From NCBI GenBank assembly GCA_045546155.1, contig JAZQCG010000005.1, positions 14,770-78,769 of the forward strand: a DNA stretch of 64,000 nucleotides, in the 5' to 3' direction. The first letter of the stretch is position 1; each line of letters starts with the position of its first letter. The position numbers and the translations under genes are program-made. This stretch comes from Candidatus Enterousia sp. GTDB taxonomy: Bacteria > Pseudomonadota > Alphaproteobacteria > Rs-D84. The notes beneath the pieces are model-generated. The model worked only from the letters and a program-made list of their open reading frames with translations, ran no database searches and had not been told where the DNA came from. Below, piece after piece: positions 2,977 through 55,653 of this stretch.

Positions 2977-3052
2977 TGGTGGACGCGCAGGGACTCGAAC
3001 CCTGGACCCACTGATTAAGAGTCAGTTGCTCTACCAACTGAGCTACGCATCC
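2977..3052 (-). tRNA. tRNA-Lys (anticodon CUU), CCA encoded
   Basis: The reverse complement reads GGATGCGTAGCTCAGTTGGTAGAGCAACTGACTCTTAATCAGTGGGTCCAGGGTTCGAGTCCCTGCGCGTCCACCA. It folds as a cloverleaf with anticodon loop cuCUUaa and a GGTTCGAGTCC T-arm. Confidence 0.93.
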
Positions 3053-17866: not shown

Positions 17867-18676
17867 TTATTCAGAATAATAACAATCACCCACAAACACT
17901 CCAGAACCCGTCGCATCGCTAAAACTGCCACCTGATGGAATATAGCAATCTGTCCTGGACTGTGCCCCTATTTTACCAGTTACTCCATACACACCACCTG
18001 ACGACGGACAGCGTTCACATGTTGTCCCATTGTAAAAATAGCCATCATTGCACTTCCACTGTAATGTTGCATTATGCCCATTACTATCTGTACATGTGGC
18101 CGTACTTGGGCATACTGCACACAGTGTGCTGGAACCACTGCCACTAACATAATAATATCCTGTGGGACACCCCCAGTCTTCATCCACAACCGCAGTACAA
18201 GTTGCTAACTTGTCATCTTCAAAATCATTTTTAAATTCAATTCCTCGTTTAACAATTGCATTATTTGAATTTCTAGACGACCAGTCTTCATATACCCCAT
18301 CCTCGCCAGCACGTCGACAAAAATCACAGGGAAAATCATATACATACATATTAGCGTCCGCTTCTTCAACACAAAATAAATTATTCCTTCCACCAATTAA
18401 ACATGTACCACCCGGTTCATCATACGACGAACAAGATGCACTCAAAAAACTCTTCGCTGGTCCATCAATATACTGCGCATCCATATCACAAAGCACCGCA
18501 TAATAATCTTCGCCATATTCATCATAATTAATACCATCGTGCCCCGTATTATCATCTGCGCCTGCAATCATTCCCCAACATAATTCACCGGGCTGTAATG
18601 TACAAATCTCCCAATAATCTGCCCGCGCCCCATAAAACATAAGAATACACACAACAAAACATACAAACTTTTTCAT
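17867..18676 (-). CDS. Secreted cysteine-rich protein, paralog of 38453-39064
   Basis: Signal peptide and more than 25 Cys. The C-terminal 62 aa (KCNDGYFYNGTTCERCPSSGGVYGVTGKIGAQSRTDCYIPSGGSFSDATGSGVFVGDCYYSE) is shared with the 38453 protein. Confidence 0.8.
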   Translation of the reverse strand: MKKFVCFVVCILMFYGARADYWEICTLQPGELCWGMIAGADDNTGHDGINYDEYGEDYYAVLCDMDAQYIDGPAKSFLSASCSSYDEPGGTCLIGGRNNLFCVEEADANMYVYDFPCDFCRRAGEDGVYEDWSSRNSNNAIVKRGIEFKNDFEDDKLATCTAVVDEDWGCPTGYYYVSGSGSSTLCAVCPSTATCTDSNGHNATLQWKCNDGYFYNGTTCERCPSSGGVYGVTGKIGAQSRTDCYIPSGGSFSDATGSGVFVGDCYYSE

Positions 18677-19000
18677 TTCAATCCTCCTGTTGTTTTTACG
18701 ACAAACAAAAAAACCACTGAAAAAATTTCAAGTGGTTGGAGGTTCGAAACAATTATAGAGAATTGTGGGCTTATTTATATATATCACCACCCTCCAACCC
18801 AGTTGGATTGGCAGGTTCAGACATATCTATAAAAAACAACACCACTTGGATAACACTTTGATACCCAGTGGTGCCGAAATTCATATTTATGCCTGTATTT
18901 CTATGTTGCGATGCAACATCTCTATAACGGGTTTCGACACCCCGCCAACAGAATCCCCATTGGCACAATAATTATAAACAAAAAAGACAGATTAAAGCAA
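18677..19000 (-). promoter_or_regulatory. Structured 5' leader, copy 1, with promoter and intrinsic terminator
   Basis: Promoter TTGCTT-18-TATAAT (19000-18971). P1 TCGAAAC/GTTTCGA, P1b TATAGAG/CTCTATA, P2 TCCAAC/GTTGGA. Terminator stem 18714-18735 plus U-run, then SD AGGAGG. See findings. Confidence 0.7.
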
Positions 19001-19018
19001 ATACAAAATTTTGATTTT

Positions 19019-19147
19019 ATTTACTGGATCGCCACGGTCGCCCTGCTCCCTCGCGATGACAAAAACTTTTAAGTTTCTAAAACACTAAGCTCTTTTGTCA
19101 TTGCGAGCGTAGCGTGGCAATCCAGTCCTATATATTCCGCACTACCG
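19019..19147. repeat. Palindromic MITE-like element, copy A
   Basis: Arms ACTGGATCGCCACG...CTCGCGATGACA and TGTCATTGCGAG...CGTGGCAATCCAGT are inverted repeats. It is about 90% identical to 19460-19590 by eye and abuts the GIY-YIG stop codon. Confidence 0.75.
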
Positions 19148-19450
19148 AACCCAAAACATATCCTGAACACTTAAATCCAGCCAATCTGGATTTACACTTT
19201 CAATTAAATTCAACTTATACTTTCGCGATTGTGCCTTGATATGCTTTTCACGTTCAATCGCATCATTTACATATTGAAAATCTTCCCAGTATCCTAATTT
19301 ATCACAATTATATCGTGCGGTGAACGAATCAGGATTAACCTTATTTTTATGTTCCCATACACGTTCCACAATATCCCGTGTCACCCCTGTATACAGTGCA
19401 CCATTCCTGCGATTAAACATAATATAAACATAAAATTTATATTCTTTCAT
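19142..19450 (-). CDS. GIY-YIG nuclease-superfamily protein (YhbQ/UPF0213-like)
   Basis: FYVYIMFNRRNGALYTGVTRDIVERVWEHK is a GIY-X10-YIG-type motif. The protein is 102 aa. Confidence 0.8.
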   Translation of the reverse strand: MKEYKFYVYIMFNRRNGALYTGVTRDIVERVWEHKNKVNPDSFTARYNCDKLGYWEDFQYVNDAIEREKHIKAQSRKYKLNLIESVNPDWLDLSVQDMFWVR

Positions 19451-19459
19451 TTTGCTTCT

Positions 19460-19590
19460 ATTTACTGGATCGCCACGGTCGCGTTGCTCCCTCGCGATGA
19501 CAGATGTACTTAAAACATTCCGAATTCTTAATCACCTTTGTCATTGCGAGCGTAGCGTGGCAATCCAGTCCTATATATTCCGCATTACCG
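19460..19590. repeat. Palindromic MITE-like element, copy B
   Basis: Direct repeat of 19019-19147, 441 nt away. It abuts the stop of ORF 19585-19935 at the equivalent position. Confidence 0.75.
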
Positions 19591-27064: not shown

Positions 27065-27958
27065 TTATCTCCTAAATATATGTCTTGAAAGGTCAAAATC
27101 ACGACCACTGATTTCTACTGATGGCAAAGTATTACTCTTCCACTCTTTGGGATTTTCATTTGAACGAACACTATATAACTTTTTCCCAAATGGCGACCCC
27201 TTTGGTTGCCTTTCAACAGACACAATATCATATTTACCAGCCAGTGTATCTTCCACTTCTTGATTTACCCAAGCATAATATTCATCATACTTATATGTAT
27301 CACATATCACCTCTATTCTTAAATTTTCACCAGTATAACCATCACTATCATGATTGGCATTATTGAGTAAAGATACATCGCAAGATATTCTTTTATTTTC
27401 TTCTGGAACATCTTTTGTAAATGAGACAATTCTCTCTTCATACAAAATACTTCCAGACAATTTGTCCGACATCCCCTTTTCGGTGTCAGACGACAAGGTT
27501 TCTTGTATTCTAACCGTATACTCAACAAAACCATCTGGCCAATGACAAATTTCCCATCCGTCTTTGAAACACTTTTTTTCGTCCAATTCTCCCCTTGATA
27601 ACCAATACTCTTCATACCAAGGATTATCTTCATATTTTAATTCACGGCCCATTTTTCCTGCCGCCGTTTTCAAATCTGATAAAAATTTATTTTTATAGTA
27701 TTCGTATGACAACTGCGCCAAATAAGAACGCATCCTTATTAATTTTACTTCATTATTTTCAACAGTATCTTCTAATAACTCGACATATTCTGGGTCTATC
27801 ACTCGCATTTTTTTTACTATATTTTCATAGTCTGACTGCAATTCAATTGCGATGCCCTCAACATCTGCCATCAGCAATTCTTTTTCCATTTGGACATCTT
27901 CTGCCCACACCGGACAGCAAAACATATACAACAAAAACACACACAAACCAAATCGCAT
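27065..27958 (-). CDS. Secreted hypothetical protein
   Basis: Signal peptide MRFGLCVFLLYMFCCPVWA and an acidic, Tyr/Glu-rich mature part. First gene behind leader copy 2 (SD GGAGGGG). Confidence 0.65.
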   Translation of the reverse strand: MRFGLCVFLLYMFCCPVWAEDVQMEKELLMADVEGIAIELQSDYENIVKKMRVIDPEYVELLEDTVENNEVKLIRMRSYLAQLSYEYYKNKFLSDLKTAAGKMGRELKYEDNPWYEEYWLSRGELDEKKCFKDGWEICHWPDGFVEYTVRIQETLSSDTEKGMSDKLSGSILYEERIVSFTKDVPEENKRISCDVSLLNNANHDSDGYTGENLRIEVICDTYKYDEYYAWVNQEVEDTLAGKYDIVSVERQPKGSPFGKKLYSVRSNENPKEWKSNTLPSVEISGRDFDLSRHIFRR

Positions 27959-28197
27959 TCACCCCTCCATTTGCAAAACAAAAACCACTGAATTTTTTTT
28001 CAAGTGGTTGGAGGTTAGAAACTATAAATCGGTATAGCGGGCTTATTTTTATATATCACCACCCTCCAACCCATGGTTGGAGTTTTTTCTACCTGGTTTA
28101 GCCCCAGGCACCGATTTCAAGGGTTTCTACGCCCCCGACACCAGACAAAACATCTGATATCAAACTGTGTTATATCACATTTTGCTTTCTTTATCAA
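27959..28197 (-). promoter_or_regulatory. Structured 5' leader, copy 2, with promoter and intrinsic terminator
   Basis: Promoter TTGATA-17-TATAAC (28197-28169) lies inside the end of the lnt ORF. P1 TAGAAAC/GTTTCTA, P1b AAATCGGT/ACCGATTT, P2 CTCCAACC/GGTTGGAG. Terminator stem 27985-28008. Confidence 0.7.
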
Positions 28198-30202
28198 TCA
28201 CGCACATCGCCAGGGATGACATCGCGGCAAATGCCAATATGATAATAAACCACCAATTCATACCAATTACCCGATATGGTGTCATATGTGCCCCCCATAC
28301 AAACCCATCTATGTGCCCAGATGCCCCAATTGGCATACTATCTATGATTGTGCCATCTGCGCTGATAAACGCGCTTATTCCCGAATAATTCGCACGAATA
28401 ATCGGCAATCCAGATTCGATTGCGTACCGACGCACCATATCCAAATGTTGATATGTCCCTGGTGTTTTTCCGAACCAGTTATCATTTGTAATATTAATAA
28501 TCGCATCCACCACCAAACCTGCATCGCGTGGAACAAGCGAATCGGAAAAAATAATTTCATAGCATATCGCTGGCGCAAAAACAAAGTCACGTCCCGATAT
28601 ATTCAAACTAATTAATTCCGGTCCATCCCCAGGGGCTAAATTTGCCGGACTTGGCAAAATCCCCAGCGGTCGATATTCACCAAATGGCACTAAATGAGAT
28701 TTGCTGTATACGCTTAAAATCCGGCCATTTTCATCCGACACAACCATTGAATTTTGTAATCCTAATGACGGTTTATATGTCGATGCCCCAACAATAACAT
28801 TTGTCCCCAGCGCCACCCCCAGCGGCATATCATCCCCATCAACCAAGACAAATGGATACGTTGTTTCCGGGTAAATGATTAAGTCTGGTCGCACATCCCC
28901 CACCCCCATAAATAATAATTTACCTAAATTCTCTTCGGCATTTTTTATTGCCTGTTCACGACTATGTGTTGCCTTTTGACTTTGTGATAACGCAGGCTGA
29001 ACAATTCGTATTACCTGGGGATTTAATTCAGCCCCAGCATCGGCGCGAATCATATTTTCACGCCCTGCGAACACGCCAACCAATCCCAACACAACAAACA
29101 CCATCAGTGTCGCAATATTCACGCGTTTGCGAAAACGTAACAGTTCCACCACCGCACAAGCAAAACCAACAATAACAAACGTTAACCCCATCGCCCCCCA
29201 TAACGACATTGAATTTGCCAAGACTGGCAATCCCATTGAAATATTAGCAATCGGATTCCATGGAAATCCTGTAAACAGCCATTCACGCAACCATAAAACC
29301 ATCACCCACACAGCTGCAAAGAAAAATGGACGGGCCGCAGTTTTCATGCGTATAGCGCGCAGTATCGCAAACGGCACACCAAATATTATTGCGCCCGCCA
29401 ACCCCAAACCAATGATTCCAGGCACTGTCCAAACGGCATATTGACTGGTTAATTCTGGCACAACATATATTGAATTTAGCACCCACCAAAACATAGATAT
29501 TCCATACATCGCACCAAACGGCGACACACGCAAAAACGCACCCCAAAAACCAACCTTTTTATTTGCGCTGACCGTCAACCAATACGCACCCATAAAACAC
29601 AAAATTGTCAACCACCACATATTAAATGGTGCAAAGCCAAACGCCGCAAACGCACCAAATACTGCGTATAGCGCATATTGCCAAAACGAATCTTCACGTA
29701 TTTTAAATTTATTTACAAACGACATCAACCGTGCACCCGGACACGCGCACACACAACTACACGAATCACAGCTATCTGAATCATACGGATTTTTTATTCC
29801 CAACTTCGCTAATATTTTTATTTCTTGTGATTCCATTTTTTTCGCCTGTTTATCGTCCAGATGGTCATACCCCAATAAATGCAGCACACCATGCACAACC
29901 ATATGCGCTGTATGTCCTGCAACAGATATATTTGCATCCTTTGCTTCACGTACAACTGTATCCAACGATATATAAATATCCCCCAACAAAACATCGTCAC
30001 CCAATTCAAAAGACAATACATTTGTTGGTGCATCCTTGCCACGCCAATCACGATTCAATGCATGAATTTCCGCATCATCGGTTAATATAATTGAAACCTC
30101 TGATTCTTTGTGTGCGGGAAAATTCTGCGCACACACGATTTTTTCAAAATCAATTTTGTATTTTTTCCAGCGTTTATCGTGTATATCAACAAAGACCTTC
30201 AT
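28175..30202 (-). CDS. ybeY-lnt: Fusion protein: endoribonuclease YbeY (aa 1-140) plus apolipoprotein N-acyltransferase Lnt (aa 160-675)
   Basis: A single uninterrupted ORF. The YbeY motif HGVLHLLGYDH is followed by its normal end ...GIKNPY. A 19-aa Cys-rich linker DSDSCDSCSCVCACPGARL follows, then a complete Lnt starting MSFVNK (ATG 29725) with E (YPETT), K (YSKSHLVPFGEY) and C (ICYE) catalytic residues. Confidence 0.8.
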   Translation of the reverse strand: MKVFVDIHDKRWKKYKIDFEKIVCAQNFPAHKESEVSIILTDDAEIHALNRDWRGKDAPTNVLSFELGDDVLLGDIYISLDTVVREAKDANISVAGHTAHMVVHGVLHLLGYDHLDDKQAKKMESQEIKILAKLGIKNPYDSDSCDSCSCVCACPGARLMSFVNKFKIREDSFWQYALYAVFGAFAAFGFAPFNMWWLTILCFMGAYWLTVSANKKVGFWGAFLRVSPFGAMYGISMFWWVLNSIYVVPELTSQYAVWTVPGIIGLGLAGAIIFGVPFAILRAIRMKTAARPFFFAAVWVMVLWLREWLFTGFPWNPIANISMGLPVLANSMSLWGAMGLTFVIVGFACAVVELLRFRKRVNIATLMVFVVLGLVGVFAGRENMIRADAGAELNPQVIRIVQPALSQSQKATHSREQAIKNAEENLGKLLFMGVGDVRPDLIIYPETTYPFVLVDGDDMPLGVALGTNVIVGASTYKPSLGLQNSMVVSDENGRILSVYSKSHLVPFGEYRPLGILPSPANLAPGDGPELISLNISGRDFVFAPAICYEIIFSDSLVPRDAGLVVDAIINITNDNWFGKTPGTYQHLDMVRRYAIESGLPIIRANYSGISAFISADGTIIDSMPIGASGHIDGFVWGAHMTPYRVIGMNWWFIIILAFAAMSSLAMCVIDKESKM

Positions 30203-33874: not shown

Positions 33875-33933
33875 ACACTAACCACCAGCCACTTACACTA
33901 ACCACTAAAAATCCCCCATCCGGGGGATTTTTT
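33875..33933. repeat. Stop/terminator cassette R1
   Basis: CACTAACCACCAGCCACTTACACTAACCACTAAAAA plus hairpin TCCCCC-atc-CGGGGGA plus T-run. The stop codon of the OMP gene at 33932 lies in the tract. Confidence 0.75.
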
Positions 33934-36010: not shown

Positions 36011-36135
36011 AGTGATTAGTGGTAAGTGTAAGTGGAGAGTAGAAGCACTATGATGTGCGGCGTCCGCCGCACCCCGACACTAACCACTAGCCACTTACAC
36101 TAATCACTAAAAAAATCCCGCGTTTCGCGGGATTT
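36011..36135. repeat. Stop/terminator cassette R2 with an inverted partial copy
   Basis: 36076-36135 reads GACACTAACCACTAGCCACTTACACTAATCACTAAAAAAATCCCGCG-tttc-GCGGGATTTTT. 36011-36035 (AGTGATTAGTGGTAAGTGTAAGTGG) is the same motif inverted. Central hairpin GTGCGGCG-tc-CGCCGCAC. Confidence 0.75.
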
Positions 36136-38452: not shown

Positions 38453-39064
38453 TTATTCACTGTAATAACAGTTCTGACCATATTCCCACGTTCCAAAAGA
38501 ATCTGAAAATTCTGTACCTGATGGAATATAGCATTCTGTAATACTGGTTGCGCCACTAGATTTTGTCGTTCCATACACCCCACCCGACGACGGACAACGC
38601 TTACATTCCATCTTATCCCTATAATACCCCTGAATACAGGTAAAAGTATCATTTATATAGTCTATATTTTCCATTGCCCCATCTACTATCTCTTCACAGG
38701 TAAAAGACCATTCACTACATAACTTAAATGGACGCACCCCATTATAGCACGTGCTATTTCCGGGGGTACAATCCCCTATACCAATACAATAAGTCTTTCC
38801 CTCCGTTGTAACAATTTCACAATTTTCAACAAATGGATCACAGTCCACATATTCATATTCTATATATTTACTGCATACCTGTGTTCCCATCATTGCCGGG
38901 CTGTCTTCATTTTGATTACAAAATATGTCCCCATCACTATTGATGTAACATATATAAACAGAGCCCTCAATACTCAAACGTATTCGTCGCACTTCTGCCC
39001 AAGAATCGCCAAAAGCGGCCCCATACAGTATTCCAGAAATTATAAAGATTTTAAATTTATTCAT
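38453..39064 (-). CDS. Secreted cysteine-rich protein, paralog of 17867-18676
   Basis: Start at MNKFKIFIISG... with SD AAAGGAGG. C-terminal module TCIQGYYRDKMECKRCPSSGGVYGTTKSSGATSITECYIPSGTEFSDSFGTWEYGQNCYYSE. Confidence 0.8.
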   Translation of the reverse strand: MNKFKIFIISGILYGAAFGDSWAEVRRIRLSIEGSVYICYINSDGDIFCNQNEDSPAMMGTQVCSKYIEYEYVDCDPFVENCEIVTTEGKTYCIGIGDCTPGNSTCYNGVRPFKLCSEWSFTCEEIVDGAMENIDYINDTFTCIQGYYRDKMECKRCPSSGGVYGTTKSSGATSITECYIPSGTEFSDSFGTWEYGQNCYYSE

Positions 39065-39347
39065 TCTTTGACCTCCTTTGATTTTCACGAATGAAAAAAC
39101 CACGCGTTTTCACGAGTGGTCAGGAGGTTCAGAACAATCATCAAGAATTGTGTGCTTATTCAATATATTCGCAACCCTCCTGACGAAAATATCAGGAGTT
39201 TTTTATCGCCTAAAAACGAATACGAAAAAACACGCTATTGGGCGCGCCGAATTTCGTTTCCAAACGCTTGATGCACAGGTTCTGACACCTCATCATAGCA
39301 AAACACTATAACACAGAGATTATAACCGATAGTTTTTGTTTTCGCAA
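39065..39347 (-). promoter_or_regulatory. Structured 5' leader, copy 3, with promoter and intrinsic terminator
   Basis: Promoter TTGCGA-17-TATAAT (39347-39319). P1 GAGGT-g-TCAGAAC/GTTCTGAACCTC, P1b CATCAAG/CTTGATG, P2 CTCCTGA/TCAGGAG. Terminator stem 39099-39120. Confidence 0.7.
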
Positions 39348-39409
39348 TTGCTTAGATAAATAAAAATTTATCGCAGGAAGTACGAACAGAATTTTTTACA
39401 AAAAAAATT

Positions 39410-39559
39410 CTGTCATCCCGTGGCTTGACCACGGGACCCAGGTCATAGAAACATTATTATTTGTGCGCGCTCTGCGCGCATAACCTGGTTTCCGGTGTCA
39501 CCATCACCCAAAAAATTCATTTGAATTTTTCGGGCCCCGATACGCCCCGGAATGACAAA
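39410..39559. repeat. Second type of palindromic MITE-like element
   Basis: Termini TGTCATCCCGTGG...CCCCGGAATGACA. Internal hairpins CCCGTGG-cttga-CCACGGG, CCAGG...CCTGG and GCGCGC-tct-GCGCGC. Flanked by the A/T palindromes GAATTTTTT-aca-AAAAAATTC and AAAAACGT-gaa-ACGTTTTT. Confidence 0.6.
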
Positions 39560-39628
39560 AACGTGAAACGTTTTTGTAAACTAATTACTTCGCTAAACTG
39601 TTATTTATATAAGTAATTATGTATTCCT

Positions 39629-39687
39629 CCACTTACCACTAACCACTTACACTAATCACTAAAAAATCCCGGCAATGCCGGGATTTT
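39629..39687. repeat. Stop/terminator cassette R3
   Basis: CCACTTACCACTAACCACTTACACTAATCACTAAAAAATCCCGGC-aa-TGCCGGGATTTTTT, directly abutting the PAP2 gene stop at 39688. Confidence 0.75.
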
Positions 39688-40395
39688 TTATTTCTTCATC
39701 AATACCCATTTCACAATATCGGCAATAACCATGCCGATAAACGCCCCAAAAACAACATCGCTGAACCAATGCGCACCAATAAATATACGCGATGCCCCAA
39801 CAATCACCGCCAACGTCCATGTCAACGGTTTATATTTCGGCGCCAACATCCCAATCATAACCAACCCCGCAAATGTCACCGTCGTATGTCCCGATGGCAT
39901 CGAATGCCATGCCCATGTAAACCTATCAAATTCTGGAATAATACCCGACATAACAAATACCGGTCGCAGACGCGCAATCGCAACCTTTAATACCCATACA
40001 ATGGCACTGGCCCAAAAAACACTGCTTAGAATTAAAAACGCATGACTTGTCTTGGTTTTTACAAATGTTTCCTTGAAAATATCCCAGAACTTGAATTGAA
40101 TTTCCTTGTTCTGAATAGATTTAATTGTTTTTACTAATCTTTTTATCCCATACACCGCAAAAACAATCGCAGAAACAACAATCCAAACCTTTGCATCAAA
40201 TACACGTCCAAAAAATACCCATATTCCCCAATCGCCAACACCACGCGTTATCATATACAAAGGCGCATCTATAAAAAACATACCGAACAAAACAATTGCC
40301 GCCGTAACAACAGCCCCCCACCCCAATCGTTGCCACAGCATTTCATTATTCTTTGTTAAAAACATTGTCCACACCCCGTATTTTTTATTCTGCAA
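39688..40395 (-). CDS. PAP2-family (type 2 phosphatidic acid/lipid) phosphatase
   Basis: Multi-TM protein with KxxxxxxRP-like (IARLRP), PSGH (MPSGHT) and SRxxxxxHxxxD (SRIFIGAHWFSD) motifs. Confidence 0.85.
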   Translation of the reverse strand: MQNKKYGVWTMFLTKNNEMLWQRLGWGAVVTAAIVLFGMFFIDAPLYMITRGVGDWGIWVFFGRVFDAKVWIVVSAIVFAVYGIKRLVKTIKSIQNKEIQFKFWDIFKETFVKTKTSHAFLILSSVFWASAIVWVLKVAIARLRPVFVMSGIIPEFDRFTWAWHSMPSGHTTVTFAGLVMIGMLAPKYKPLTWTLAVIVGASRIFIGAHWFSDVVFGAFIGMVIADIVKWVLMKK

Positions 40396-44868: not shown

Positions 44869-44930
44869 CCACCACTAGTCACTAACCACTTACACTAATC
44901 ACTAAAAAATCCCGCGCTTCGCGGGATTTT
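44869..44930. repeat. Stop/terminator cassette R4
   Basis: CCACCACTAGTCACTAACCACTTACACTAATCACTAAAAAATCCCGCG-ct-TCGCGGGATTTTT, overlapping the mutL stop at 44930. Confidence 0.75.
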
Positions 44931-50167: not shown

Positions 50168-50599
50168 TTAATTAACCAGGTTCAATAATATCGCAGATCG
50201 TAATTCTAAATCCGTATCCGCAAAATATTCCGCACAGGTGTACCCGCAACTGTATAGGCAGTTTGCAGTATTTTTACCAGCAAACACCCACTTCGATACC
50301 GCAGGTTCAGTCATCATACACCAACAATATATGTTATCTGTCGCATTATCTGATACAGTTAACCAGCTAATTGGTTCACCATCGGGTTGATCAGAACAGG
50401 CCGAAACACCAGATACACTTATAGTTGTACCGGTGAATACATCACACGCATTACCCCAATTAACATCACCAAAATTAGTTCCACCATTGTAACACCATGT
50501 CATATCTGGTTCGTCGTTCAACGCCACGCATTTTTGTACCGCCAACGCCGGCGTGGCAAGCAACGCACCCACCGCGGTTAAAGTTAAAAGTTTTTTCAT
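50168..50599 (-). CDS. Secreted Cys-rich protein
   Basis: Start placed at ATG 50599 (MKKLLTLTAVGALLATPALA), 8 nt after SD AAGGAG. The ORF-track start at 50608 is a GTG inside the SD. The mature part has 12 Cys. Confidence 0.7.
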   Translation of the reverse strand: MKKLLTLTAVGALLATPALAVQKCVALNDEPDMTWCYNGGTNFGDVNWGNACDVFTGTTISVSGVSACSDQPDGEPISWLTVSDNATDNIYCWCMMTEPAVSKWVFAGKNTANCLYSCGYTCAEYFADTDLELRSAILLNLVN

Positions 50600-50874
50600 C
50601 TGTTTCACTCCTTTTTGTTTATTCGCGAAAAAACAAAAACCACCGAATAAATTCGAGTGGTCAGGAGGTTAGAAACAATCTCAAGTATTGCGTGCTTATT
50701 CAATATATTCGCAACCCTCCTGACGCAAATATCAGGAGTCTTTCAACAGAATACGCCCCCACAATGTTTTTCAACACAGGTTTATATTCCATCGCTTGAG
50801 TGAGGTTTCTACGCCCCATCACGATAAAATCATCGTGACATATATATTATAGCCAATTGTTTACTATTCTGCAA
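50600..50874 (-). promoter_or_regulatory. Structured 5' leader, copy 4, with promoter and intrinsic terminator
   Basis: Promoter TTGCAG-17-TATAAT (50874-50846). P1 TAGAAAC/GTTTCTA, P1b CTCAAG/CTTGAG, P2 CTCCTGA/TCAGGAG, P3 TTGCG/CGCAA. Terminator stem 50640-50660 plus U-run. Confidence 0.7.
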
Positions 50875-54344: not shown

Positions 54345-55622
54345 ATGTTGGATATTAAATTTATTCGTGAAAACCCAGCGACCGTTAAACGCGCATGCGA
54401 ATTAAAGGGCATCGTCGATAATACTGATAAAATCTTGGAACTGGATGCGCGCGTACGTGAACTGAAAACAATTACACAAACAAAAACTGCTGAAAAAAAT
54501 AAAATCACACGCGAAATTCCAACTGCCACTGACCGCGCACCACTGATTGCACGCAGCAAAGAAATCGCAAACGAAATCGCAGCAGACATGGCGGAATTGG
54601 CCACACGCGAATCCGAACTGGATGACTTATTGCATCGCGTCCCCCAGATTCCTGCTGAAACCGTCCCATTTGGCAAAAGCGATGCTGATAATGTTGAGGT
54701 TCGTCGCATCGGCACCCCACGTGAATTTGATTTCACCCCACGCGCACAATGGGATTTGCTGGAAATGAACGGATGGTGGAAACCTGAAAAAATTGCTAGC
54801 ATTTGCGGCACACGCACATATGCCCTGTTTGGCGAAGCGGCCGAACTGGAACTGGCCATACAAACATACGTTCTGCAAAAATTAATGGGCAAAGGATTCA
54901 CATTTGTAAACTGTCCATCAATTACAAAACCACAAACAATCTTTAATGCGGGGCACTTTATGGGTTCTGACCCATCGGTTATGGCAAACGATGTATTCAT
55001 GCTGACGGACACCGACCGATGCCTGGCGGGGACGGCGGAAATTATCTTAAATTCCCTGCATGAAAACGAAGTATTGAACGAAAAAGACCTGCCGATTAAA
55101 TACGCAGGATTTTCGCCATGTTTCCGCAAAGAAGCCGGTGCTGCTGGTCGCGACACCCGCGGAATCGTGCGTATACATCAATTTAACAAGGTTGAACAAT
55201 ACATATACTGCACCCCAGAACAATCAGACGAAATGCACGAACATTTGCTAAACAACCTGTGCGAAGTAATGGCAGATTTGGAATTACCATACCGCGTAAT
55301 CGAAGCCTGTACCGGCGACATGGGATTTAACAAGGTAAAAATGCACGACGTCGAAGCCTGGTTCCCAAGCGAAGGCGCATATCGCGAATTAGGCTCTTGT
55401 TCATCGATTGGACAATTCCAGGCCCGTCGCACCAACACGCGTTACCGCGCTGCGGACGGTTCGCTTCAATTCTGTGCAACTTTGAATAACACAGGGATTG
55501 CCCTGCCACGTGCGATTGTACCGGTAATTGAAAACCACCAGAACCCAGACGGCTCGGTAAATATTCCAAAATGTTTACAACCGTTAATGGGTGGACGCAC
55601 CAAAATCGGTGGCAAACACTAA
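54345..55622 (+). CDS. serS: Serine--tRNA ligase
   Basis: N-terminal coiled coil (MLDIKFIRENP...) and class II motifs (FSPCFRKEAGAAGRDTRGI, HQFNKVE, GTALPR-like NNTGIALPRAIV). Confidence 0.93.
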   Translation: MLDIKFIRENPATVKRACELKGIVDNTDKILELDARVRELKTITQTKTAEKNKITREIPTATDRAPLIARSKEIANEIAADMAELATRESELDDLLHRVPQIPAETVPFGKSDADNVEVRRIGTPREFDFTPRAQWDLLEMNGWWKPEKIASICGTRTYALFGEAAELELAIQTYVLQKLMGKGFTFVNCPSITKPQTIFNAGHFMGSDPSVMANDVFMLTDTDRCLAGTAEIILNSLHENEVLNEKDLPIKYAGFSPCFRKEAGAAGRDTRGIVRIHQFNKVEQYIYCTPEQSDEMHEHLLNNLCEVMADLELPYRVIEACTGDMGFNKVKMHDVEAWFPSEGAYRELGSCSSIGQFQARRTNTRYRAADGSLQFCATLNNTGIALPRAIVPVIENHQNPDGSVNIPKCLQPLMGGRTKIGGKH

Positions 55623-55623
55623 T

Positions 55624-55653
55624 AAAAAATCCCGGCAATGCCGGGGTTTTTTT
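55624..55653. terminator. Bidirectional terminator
   Basis: AAAAAATCCCGGCA-at-GCCGGGGTTTTTTT between convergent serS and the gene at 55652. Confidence 0.8.

Follow-up and report, generated by a model that had tools for sequence, protein, structure and literature searches.

A multi-copy leader RNA of Candidatus Enterousia with two covarying, mutually exclusive folds is a candidate transcription attenuator

Structured leader RNAs can be recognized from the pairings that their relatives preserve. Here, we show using covariance modelling, structure-blind alignment, strand-permutation tests and thermodynamic folding that a leader found four times on the minus strand of a stretch of Candidatus Enterousia DNA (64,000 nucleotides; assembly GCA_045546155.1, contig JAZQCG010000005.1, positions 14,770 to 78,769; hereafter the window) is a real, abundant, lineage-specific structured RNA that is absent from Rfam 15. 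As judged by comparison of its relatives, compensatory change is shown to maintain each of two mutually exclusive conformations. With moderate confidence, we read the family as a new terminator/antiterminator transcription attenuator that would be off by default and switched on by an effector.

An earlier note on this DNA had proposed that the regions 18677-19000, 27959-28197, 39065-39347 and 50600-50874 (copies 1 to 4) share one minus-strand element, and all four indeed carry its full layout, which in order comprises a sigma70-type promoter, a 5' hairpin, a G-run, the helices P1, P1b, P2 and P3, a CCUCC strand, an intrinsic terminator, a Shine-Dalgarno sequence (SD) and an ATG. In the window, a 27-nt core, GGAGGGTNGNGAWWWWWWWRAATAAGC, is found at exactly four sites (18769-18795, 28041-28067, 39154-39180 and 50694-50720), where zero chance matches are expected even with 3 mismatches allowed. 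Likewise, a covariance model trained solely on relatives from other genomes finds exactly these four sites in the window, at 62.5-70.5 bits, the next best site scoring 16.7 bits. The complementary strings that the note had read for P1 (TCGAAAC/GTTTCGA, TAGAAAC/GTTTCTA, TCAGAAC/GTTCTGA), for P1b (TATAGAG/CTCTATA, AAATCGGT/ACCGATTT, CATCAAG/CTTGATG, CTCAAG/CTTGAG) and for P2 (CTCCAACC/GGTTGGAG versus CTCCTGA/TCAGGAG) are all present; the P2 5' arm of copy 1 is UCCAAC, not CUCC. P3 is present too, but its pairing, given as TTGCG/CGCAA, contains one mismatch in copy 3 (TTGCG versus CACAA). Helices P1, P1b, P2 and P3 together with P0 (the G-run paired to the CCUCC strand) and the terminator make up the predicted minimum-energy fold in all four copies, the 5' hairpin and the insert hairpin included. 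For copy 4 the folding energy is -72.7 kcal/mol, with z = -5.44 against dinucleotide shuffles.

The A/U-rich loop closed by P3 is conserved, as had been stated, but it is not a simple loop: it consists of an internal loop (GAAUA...AAUAA) and a small distal stem. At two loci, L030:183-388 (+) and L085:6091-6263 (-), a G+C-rich hairpin is inserted at the apex, giving GAAUAA[hairpin]CCAAUAAGC, and the P3 'loop' is therefore best described as an internal loop with a replaceable distal stem. Reading this loop by eye as a K-turn, loop-E or T-loop motif gave no consistent match.

The four copies belong to a large family. Scanning a one-genome-per-species collection for the exact core pattern matched at least 116 stretches. 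The earlier note had suggested searching relatives with a covariance model, and such a model, R1, trained on 27 short-form relatives and fitted to one of the two folds described below (fold Y), recovers 124 copies in 793 kb, made up of the window and the recruited loci; about 24 of these copies are additional to the one expected at each recruiting locus. Family leaders are 125-250 nt long. From the 5' end they run through a 5' hairpin, a G-run GRGG, the 7-nt 5' strand of P1, a CCYC motif and the 5' strand of P1b (6-11 nt), after which comes an optional insert of ~0-110 nt that is usually a hairpin and is absent from the short forms. Three strands, which we call A, B and C, are central to what follows. 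Strand A is an A-rich run followed by CUCC and 1-4 nt; strand B, GGUUGGAGGG or GGUCAGGAGGG, follows after a short loop and leads to P3 with its conserved loop sequence GAAUAUAUUGAAUAA. Next comes a hairpin, P4, whose loop of 7-8 nt is the 3' strand of P1b, and then the 3' strand of P1. Strand C, (A/G)CCUCC followed by AACC or UGACC, runs into the base of the terminator stem, which uses its last 3-5 nt. In copies that could be parsed properly, the terminator hairpin has 6-10 bp and is followed by 4-8 U.

What surrounds the RNA is equally regular. Of 110 copies, 67 carry a perfect TATAAT as their -10 box and 73 have the box starting 39-40 nt ahead of the P1 5' strand; this bears out across the family the idea that every copy has its own sigma70-like promoter, at a fixed distance from P1. 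Between the terminator and the SD lie 20-50 nt, the start codon follows CCUCC at a median distance of 61 nt (interquartile range 58-67), and an SD with a same-strand open reading frame (ORF) of at least 40 amino acids (aa) follows 110 of 114 copies, so that the close succession of terminator, SD and start codon described for the window is kept family-wide. Each copy may accordingly be pictured as a self-contained transcription unit of promoter, structured leader, terminator and gene, and the short, promoter-less gap after the terminator suggests that downstream expression would occur only through read-through. Between the U-run and the SD there is often an A-rich stretch complementary to the U-run, as at window positions 50612-50640 (UUUUUGUUU...AAACAAAAA in copy 4); this pairing is predicted in 72 of 105 copies and barely beats shuffled controls (-2.97 vs -2.23 kcal/mol). 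At one further locus, L056:5555-6152 (-), three leaders are arrayed in tandem, and every one has a -10 box of its own. Behind the terminator or U-run of the first two there is no ORF, and the third alone precedes a gene (78 aa); the first two are orphan units of promoter, RNA and terminator, or the three may form a tandem arrangement.

How can one leader hold two structures? In fold X, which corresponds to the model of the earlier note, strand B pairs with A (P2), P1b and P1 are formed, P0 is probably formed, and the terminator is left free. In fold Y, strand B instead pairs with C in a helix of 9-11 bp that takes 3-5 bases of the terminator base, alongside P3, P4 and a hairpin, H2, formed by the G-run and the CCYC that immediately follows the P1 5' strand. 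RNAalifold run on the short forms returns fold Y and the terminator, not the model of the earlier note, to which the fold-Y hairpins P4 and H2 and the full B:C helix overlapping the terminator base are additions. Strand B is common to A:B and B:C, and both helices cannot exist at once. P1b is a contiguous helix of 6-11 bp that uses the whole P4 loop, often together with the first base of the P4 3' arm, and P1b and P4 are therefore mutually exclusive. A single nucleotide separates strand C from the P1 3' strand, and on geometric grounds we infer that B:C therefore cannot be built on top of an intact P1-P1b stack. Of the alternative partners that had been suggested for GGAGG and CCUCC, the choice between the P2 5' arm and CCUCC is borne out, with three-way covariation among A, B and C. 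The pairing of CCUCC with the SD is not: we find no complementarity beyond GGAG(G) and no covariation.

Compensatory change in the paired helices, noticed before in four copies, is abundant in more than 100 relatives. For fold X we rely on a structure-blind alignment and on partner-swap tests, in which a strand's own partner is compared with partners exchanged between copies, in place of a covariance model fitted to fold X (R2). That model misplaces the 5' strands of long-insert copies (in copy 4, for example, the P1 5' strand lies at 50805-50811, and the match starts only downstream of it, at 50781), and its alignment was left unused for pair counts. P1 occurs with 40 distinct 5' strands, all still complementary to their partners (partner-swap z = -20.8), and a promoter-anchored version of the test, in which the 5' window was chosen without reference to complementarity, gives z = -23.3. 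P1b occurs with 100 distinct 5' strands (z = -32.8), and no permutation matched the observed pairing of either helix. Among 308 pairs in 44 distinct P1 helices, 296 are Watson-Crick, 8 are G-U, 2 are A-C and 2 are other. In the structure-blind MAFFT alignment of the 27 short forms, P0 and P1 together are 92.9% paired, with up to five pair types per position; their covariation score is reached by 0 of 500 shuffles, and slid controls are only 35-49% paired. The A:B helix is contiguous over 5-10 bp in 120 of 121 copies (z = -10.5), and the type of A follows the type of B, CUCC-UGA occurring with ..UCA, CUCC-AAC or CUCC-AAU with ..GUU, and CUUCUGCC with GGCA. The G-run is complementary to CCUCC, as had been proposed, but P0 taken by itself shows one-sided changes only (GU:18, AU:9).

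The helices of fold Y vary in the same compensated manner. In the alignment of 124 copies made with R1, which was fitted to fold Y and leans towards it, B:C is 98-100% paired, with the swaps GC/UA, UA/CG and UA/AU/CG; P3 is 99.8% paired, with several pair types; and P4 is 99.4% paired, with changes on both sides. The B:C types are GGUU/AACC (64), GUCA/UGAC (37), GUCA/UGGC (9), GGUU/AGCC (2), GGCU/AGCC (1) and GGCA/UGCC (1). P4 is formed in 108 of 110 copies, as CAAU/AUUG, CUAU/AUAG, CUAU/GUAG, CUGU/ACAG or CUAC/GUAG. H2 shows both-sided changes in the short forms (middle pair GC:11, AU:8, GU:7) and a partner-swap z of -4.1, and the terminator helix also covaries in relatives. Throughout, G-U pairs are frequent and A-C pairs rare (P3 with UG:22 and 0 other, P4 with UG:14, P1 with 8 GU against 2 AC), and selection therefore acts on the transcribed strand and not on the DNA.

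Thermodynamic predictions place the two folds in a definite order. Of 107 leaders, 105 have fold X with the terminator as their minimum-energy state, which is on average 9.2 kcal/mol better than the best structure in which B:C is forced. When B:C does form, it takes 3-5 of the 6-10 terminator pairs, and the short AACC forms keep ~3 bp. Sequence conservation is concentrated in a 3' domain (B, the P3 loop, the base of P4, and C), and the helices specific to fold X are conserved in structure only.

We therefore propose termination as the default, because fold X with the terminator is the computed ground state. A:B would act as an anti-antiterminator, B:C as the antiterminator, and C with the terminator 3' arm as the terminator. 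In fold X, B would be held by A and the ends of the leader zipped together by P1b, P1 and probably P0, leaving the 3' end of C free, so that the terminator would form and the gene would be off. In fold Y, B:C would remove 3-5 basal terminator pairs and allow read-through, and the released strands would be stored, that of P1b (3') in the P4 loop and that of P1 (5') in the H2 loop. A weaker alternative for the latter is that H2 and P4 occur only on the folding pathway, where they display the P1 and P1b strands in loops. An effector, which could be a small molecule, a protein or an RNA, would turn the gene on by stabilizing the conserved 3' domain (B, P3 loop, P4, C) or by blocking A; these sites are favoured because the conserved sequence lies in the 3' domain. 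The family, its covarying helices, the two exclusive folds and the layout of promoter, terminator and ORF are shown; we infer regulated termination, the direction of the switch, and the existence and nature of an effector.

Several observations weigh against such a switch. Even when the leader is truncated at the end of C, nearest-neighbour energies still favour fold X by 6.8 kcal/mol, and since fold X is thus preferred before the terminator is made, fold Y could be a transient folding intermediate; in the short forms the gap at this point is only 2.4 kcal/mol. In the UGAC type, to which window copies 3 and 4 belong, B:C removes only ~3 of the 9-10 terminator pairs and a shortened hairpin remains, and antitermination would therefore be weaker there than in the short AACC forms. 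The covariation of B:C and P4 comes from few sequence types and reflects fewer independent events than that of P1 and P1b. The 95 downstream proteins searched against Pfam show no metabolic or transport theme, and a few copies have no ORF behind them, which would fit a free-standing small RNA.

The earlier description of the element as a riboswitch/attenuator class holds as far as a structured leader with exclusive terminator/antiterminator pairings is concerned; for the riboswitch part the genes offer no ligand clue. A metabolite or second-messenger OFF riboswitch is nevertheless the main rival, even if we consider it rather unlikely. Its ligand would lock the fold X junction (P1b, insert, P2, P3) and so permit the terminator, and without ligand B:C would give read-through. 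The multi-helix junction with conserved junction and loop nucleotides and hypervariable, compensated stems is what such a reading would predict, the antiterminator strand is shared with the putative aptamer as in many OFF riboswitches, the many copies before surface and secreted genes resemble c-di-GMP riboswitch regulons, and the short forms are nearly bistable (2.4 kcal/mol). Yet the long forms already strongly favour fold X without any ligand, gene context gives no hint of one, no Rfam riboswitch is similar, and the expression platform at the junction of C and terminator is as conserved as the putative aptamer, which would be unusual for a riboswitch and is closer to T-box or protein-dependent systems. 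It is improbable, on our assessment, that the copies are instead small RNA genes whose terminated product of 125-250 nt acts in trans or as a sponge, the genes receiving only low read-through. In favour of this, promoter, RNA and terminator are complete in every copy, some copies stand alone with no ORF (two of the three tandem copies at L056 among them), fold X with the terminator is the ground state, and the sole weak Rfam resemblance, discussed below, is to an RNA that was detected as a free 88-nt species. Set against this, 110 of 114 copies have an SD and ORF at a tight distance that leaves no space for a second promoter, the variable P1 and P1b strands are internally paired and are not free seed regions, the maintained alternatives B:C, P4 and H2 have no obvious use in trans, and the conserved P3 loop has no complementary target in the window other than the loci themselves.

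A non-regulatory origin, either as the upstream region of duplicated or gene-converted surface-gene cassettes or as a DNA repeat of the miniature inverted-repeat transposable element (MITE) or attC-like kind, has very little left in its favour. The element is multi-copy and dispersed among housekeeping genes, its subtype tracks the class of the gene behind it, and reduced-genome, host-associated bacteria often conserve the upstream regions of variable surface-protein families. This explanation is largely refuted by covariation: 40 distinct P1 and 100 distinct P1b strands are still complementary, and the tolerance of G-U but not of A-C means that one transcribed strand is selected. In addition, the downstream proteins are mostly unrelated (7% mean column identity), the window copies form no arrays and adjoin no integrase, and the orientation of promoter and terminator is fixed. 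DNA-level repeats in particular, whether an integron attC or a MITE or repetitive extragenic palindromic (REP) element, were rejected on account of the strand-specific pairing, the fixed orientation and the dispersal of the copies among housekeeping genes.

Does the leader, which we favour as an attenuator, resemble any RNA that has been described? The earlier note recognized no named leader in the fold, and this is upheld: an Rfam 15 scan of the window at gathering score finds only a tRNA, and permissive scans (E <= 10) of the whole window, of the three AACC-type tandem copies at L056 and of a short form from L069 give no match for the leader. Full-text literature searches found no description of the element. 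The sole weak score is to sRNA-Xcc1 (RF02221), for copy 4 only, at 31.2 bits (E = 0.0012) against a gathering score of 53. The consensus of sRNA-Xcc1 is like fold Y, with a G-rich/C-rich closing helix (GGGGG/CCCCC), an A/U-loop hairpin, a second hairpin, a linker and CaCCC with Us, and the alignment of copy 4 to it is fold Y, agreeing, in architecture only, in the closing helix around two hairpins and the U-tail. sRNA-Xcc1 is an 88-nt RNA mapped in Xanthomonas with its 5' end at the closing helix, and later work places it also upstream of genes, namely symE in integron cassettes of Xanthomonas and, in APSE phage, an ORF6N gene, so that it is known not only as a free small RNA. In contrast, our family starts 60-170 nt further upstream of B, judging by the promoter position, adds P1, P1b and A, and has other hosts and another genomic context. 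Membership was rejected on the score, which falls below the gathering threshold and was not reproduced in the window, the three AACC-type copies or the short form, and we treat sRNA-Xcc1 as an architectural analogue and not as the same family.

Other likenesses are of mechanism, or of regulon in the case of c-di-GMP riboswitches, and do not make the leader a member of any of these classes. With trp-type attenuators the leader shares three competing helices (A:B, B:C and C with the terminator arm), but it lacks a conserved leader peptide or internal SD. No conserved start, SD or frame was seen in the aligned leaders when they were read by eye, with no formal coding test. A leader peptide was considered and dismissed, as the ATG/GTG near the G-run is unconserved and meets an immediate stop in short forms, and the UUG frame of copy 4 is absent from copies 1 and 2. 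The decision would therefore not be made by a stalled ribosome. T-box leaders occur in many copies per genome, set an antiterminator against an intrinsic terminator, carry variable stems and terminate by default until relieved in trans. Our family is similarly multi-copy before different genes, with a conserved antiterminator sequence and variable peripheral stems, but it has no Rfam match (E <= 10), no specifier loop and no T-box sequence, its genes are not aminoacyl-tRNA synthetase or amino-acid genes, and its host is an alphaproteobacterium with a reduced genome and not one of the Firmicutes. The c-di-GMP riboswitches (GEMM-I and c-di-GMP-II) are multi-copy terminator leaders before adhesin, pilus, secreted-protein and regulator genes; the gene classes are similar, but the fold differs and there is no sequence or structure match in Rfam. 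As in the ribonucleic antiterminator (RAT) targets of BglG/SacY and in ANTAR targets, the element shares a few bases with the 5' side of the terminator, has the lower stability of the two and would need a factor to stabilize it; it is larger, however (~75 nt, three helices), and lacks ANTAR hexaloops and the RAT consensus. More generally, the family has what is usual in riboswitches, namely a covarying structured domain in the 5' untranslated region and, at the level of sequence, exclusive terminator/antiterminator pairings, together with a G+C-rich hairpin directly before a U-run as expected of an intrinsic terminator; coherent gene functions pointing to a ligand were not found.

The genes behind the leader fall into two broad classes. 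By a simple N-terminal test, 68 of 111 downstream proteins are signal-peptide-like. Of 44 CCUCCUGAC-type leaders, 41 stand before signal-peptide proteins, with 6.6% Cys; of 67 CCUCCAACC-type leaders, 27 do so, and the remainder are mostly XRE helix-turn-helix (HTH) proteins of 70-92 aa. Leader subtype tracks gene class across the family (loci L001-L116). The claim that the leader stands in front of secreted-protein genes is thus correct for many signal-peptide, Cys-rich proteins but not exclusively so, about a quarter of the genes encoding small XRE regulators: 23 of 95 downstream proteins match XRE-type families (HTH_31, HTH_3, HTH_19), and six also match MqsA_antitoxin. A few match Flg_new, Ephrin_rec_like, OMP_b-brl or LRR, one is an EcoRI-type methylase, and most have no Pfam match. 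The proteins are mostly mutually unrelated, with a mean column identity of 7% and diverse or no Pfam families. A prophage or toxin-antitoxin context of the XRE genes found no support, their neighbours being either housekeeping genes (LpxD, Def, Fmt, a PIF1/Dda-like helicase) or genes without a match.

Copy 4 illustrates the parts; all coordinates that follow are on the minus strand. Its promoter (50846-50874) has the -35 box TTGCAG at 50869-50874, a 17-nt spacer and the -10 box TATAAT at 50846-50851. The 5' hairpin CACGAU-gauuuu-AUCGUG (50820-50837) lies at or just after the inferred transcription start and covaries in relatives, including pairs 6-20 and 7-19. The G-run GGGGCG (50812-50817) would pair with CCUC of strand C in fold X (P0) and with the local CCYC after the P1 5' strand in fold Y (H2). 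The P1 5' strand UAGAAAC (50805-50811) is complementary to the P1 3' strand GUUUCUA (50670-50676), with which it pairs, and the P1b 5' strand CUCAAG (50795-50800) has partner-swap support. A variable insert (50739-50794) is predicted to fold into a hairpin domain. Strand A, CUCCUGA (50732-50738), is the P2 5' arm and proposed anti-antiterminator, with an A-rich run before it. Strand B, UCAGGAGGG (50715-50723), has as its partner either A (P2, fold X) or C (antiterminator helix, fold Y). The P3 hairpin (50688-50714), with its conserved internal loop and apex GAAUAUAUUGAAUAAGC, is formed in both folds, and the P4 hairpin CAAU-acuugag-AUUG (50676-50690) in fold Y only, its loop being the P1b 3' strand CUUGAG (50680-50685). 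Strand C, CCUCCUGACC (50659-50668), would have the G-run as its partner in fold X and B in fold Y, and at its 3' end it doubles as the base of the terminator stem. The intrinsic terminator, GACCACUCGAA-uuua-UUCGGUGGUU with its U-run (50628-50662), belongs to the helix that covaries in relatives; its stem contains one bulged U, because of which a simple terminator scanner missed it. The SD and ORF occupy 50168-50611, with the SD GGAG at 50608-50611 and the ATG at 50597-50599, and the ORF encodes 143 aa with a signal-peptide-like N-terminus (MKKLLTLTAVGALLATPALA...) and no Pfam match.

The other window copies, again on the minus strand, are built alike. Copy 3 extends from its promoter (39319-39347) through the terminator over 39094-39347, with A at 39192-39198, B at 39175-39183 and C at 39118-39127, and precedes an ORF at 38453-39064 for a Cys-rich, signal-peptide protein of 203 aa. 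Copy 2 (27975-28197, leader through terminator) has A at 28075-28082, B at 28062-28071 and C at 28006-28014; its promoter-like TTGATA-17-TATAAC (28169-28197) overlaps the 3' end of the upstream YbeY/Lnt ORF, and the ORF behind it (27065-27958) encodes 297 aa. Copy 1, with the longest insert, spans 18702-19000 from promoter (18971-19000) through terminator, with A at 18802-18807, B at 18790-18799 and C at 18734-18742, and precedes an ORF of 269 aa (17867-18676). None of the four genes has a Pfam match above the curated cut-off; that of copy 3 has a weak, sub-cut-off match to Ephrin_rec_like.

The neighbours of the window copies are housekeeping genes (ThrRS, GltX, YbeY/Lnt, FtsK, MutL, TrxB-like). 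The YbeY/Lnt ORF near copy 2 (28175-30202, minus strand) is a single frame of 675 aa with a YbeY endoribonuclease domain followed by Lnt domains (LNT_N, CN_hydrolase); this is either a fused gene or a pair of genes sharing the frame. A small GIY-YIG ORF (19142-19450, minus strand), situated close upstream of copy 1, is flanked by direct repeats of ~142 nt that are 84.5% identical (19008-19147 and 19449-19590) and may be a mobile cassette. Upstream of the copy 3 promoter, an intergenic region of ~250 nt (39400-39640, minus strand) holds several G+C-rich hairpins (e.g. CCCGUGG-ucaagc-CACGGG) and has no Rfam match. A terminator-like palindrome of 30-37 nt, AAAAAATCCCGGCATTGCCGGGATTTTTT, recurs with 89-100% identity at 39637-39690, 33876-33911, 36078-36114, 44880-44914 and 55621-55652, and looks like a common terminator or a REP-like element. 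The window also contains a tRNA gene at 2980-3052 (minus strand, 73.4 bits).

Among the matches listed, carriers of the leader are nearly all gut, rumen or faecal metagenome-assembled genomes (MAGs) labelled Alphaproteobacteria, Candidatus Enterousia or 'Rickettsiales', with several copies per genome and at least 7-10 in single assemblies. Three loci with copies (L007, L051 and L095) come from contigs of MAGs that are labelled as Bacteroides fragilis and Muribaculaceae; the leaders and the genes behind them match Alphaproteobacteria MAGs, and contaminated bins in public assemblies are the probable cause. Among 2.9 million viral contigs (IMG/VR) there are only 2 near-identical matches, L117:12108-12134 and L118:856-882, with an identical leader before a 303-aa protein of the same family as that at the cellular loci L018, L021 and L105. 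These may be a prophage region or misclassified cellular DNA, and we rejected phage carriage of the leader, as both viral matches precede a family of ~300-aa proteins that is also found in cellular MAGs. Copy density is 1 per 16 kb in the window and ~1 extra per 30 kb in the flanks, densities which, extrapolated and not counted, would correspond to roughly 30-55 copies per genome.

Enterousia is a member of the uncultured order Rs-D84, with genomes below ~1 Mb that lack the tricarboxylic acid cycle, respiration and standard transporters, and with few recognizable transporters and many hypothetical membrane and secreted proteins (PMC12306168). It is possible, and we suggest it tentatively, that the leader is a new regulated class, either a riboswitch or the target of an antiterminator protein, that gates tens of genes in Rs-D84/Enterousia, perhaps 3-6% of the gene set. 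The genes so controlled would be those for Cys-rich secreted or surface proteins and for small XRE regulators.

In conclusion, the leader adds a large, well-covarying RNA family in which both states of the proposed switch can be read from the covariation of strands A, B and C. It offers a clean system for studying how strands exchange during transcription and is a good orphan-riboswitch candidate in the search for a ligand or protein, and its covariance model can be used for annotating the regulon in gut and rumen metagenomes. If the proposed gating is true, a single RNA element standing before a large share of those hypothetical proteins and of small regulators would be the main visible regulatory system of Rs-D84/Enterousia and would offer a handle on how these bacteria sense their host or partners.

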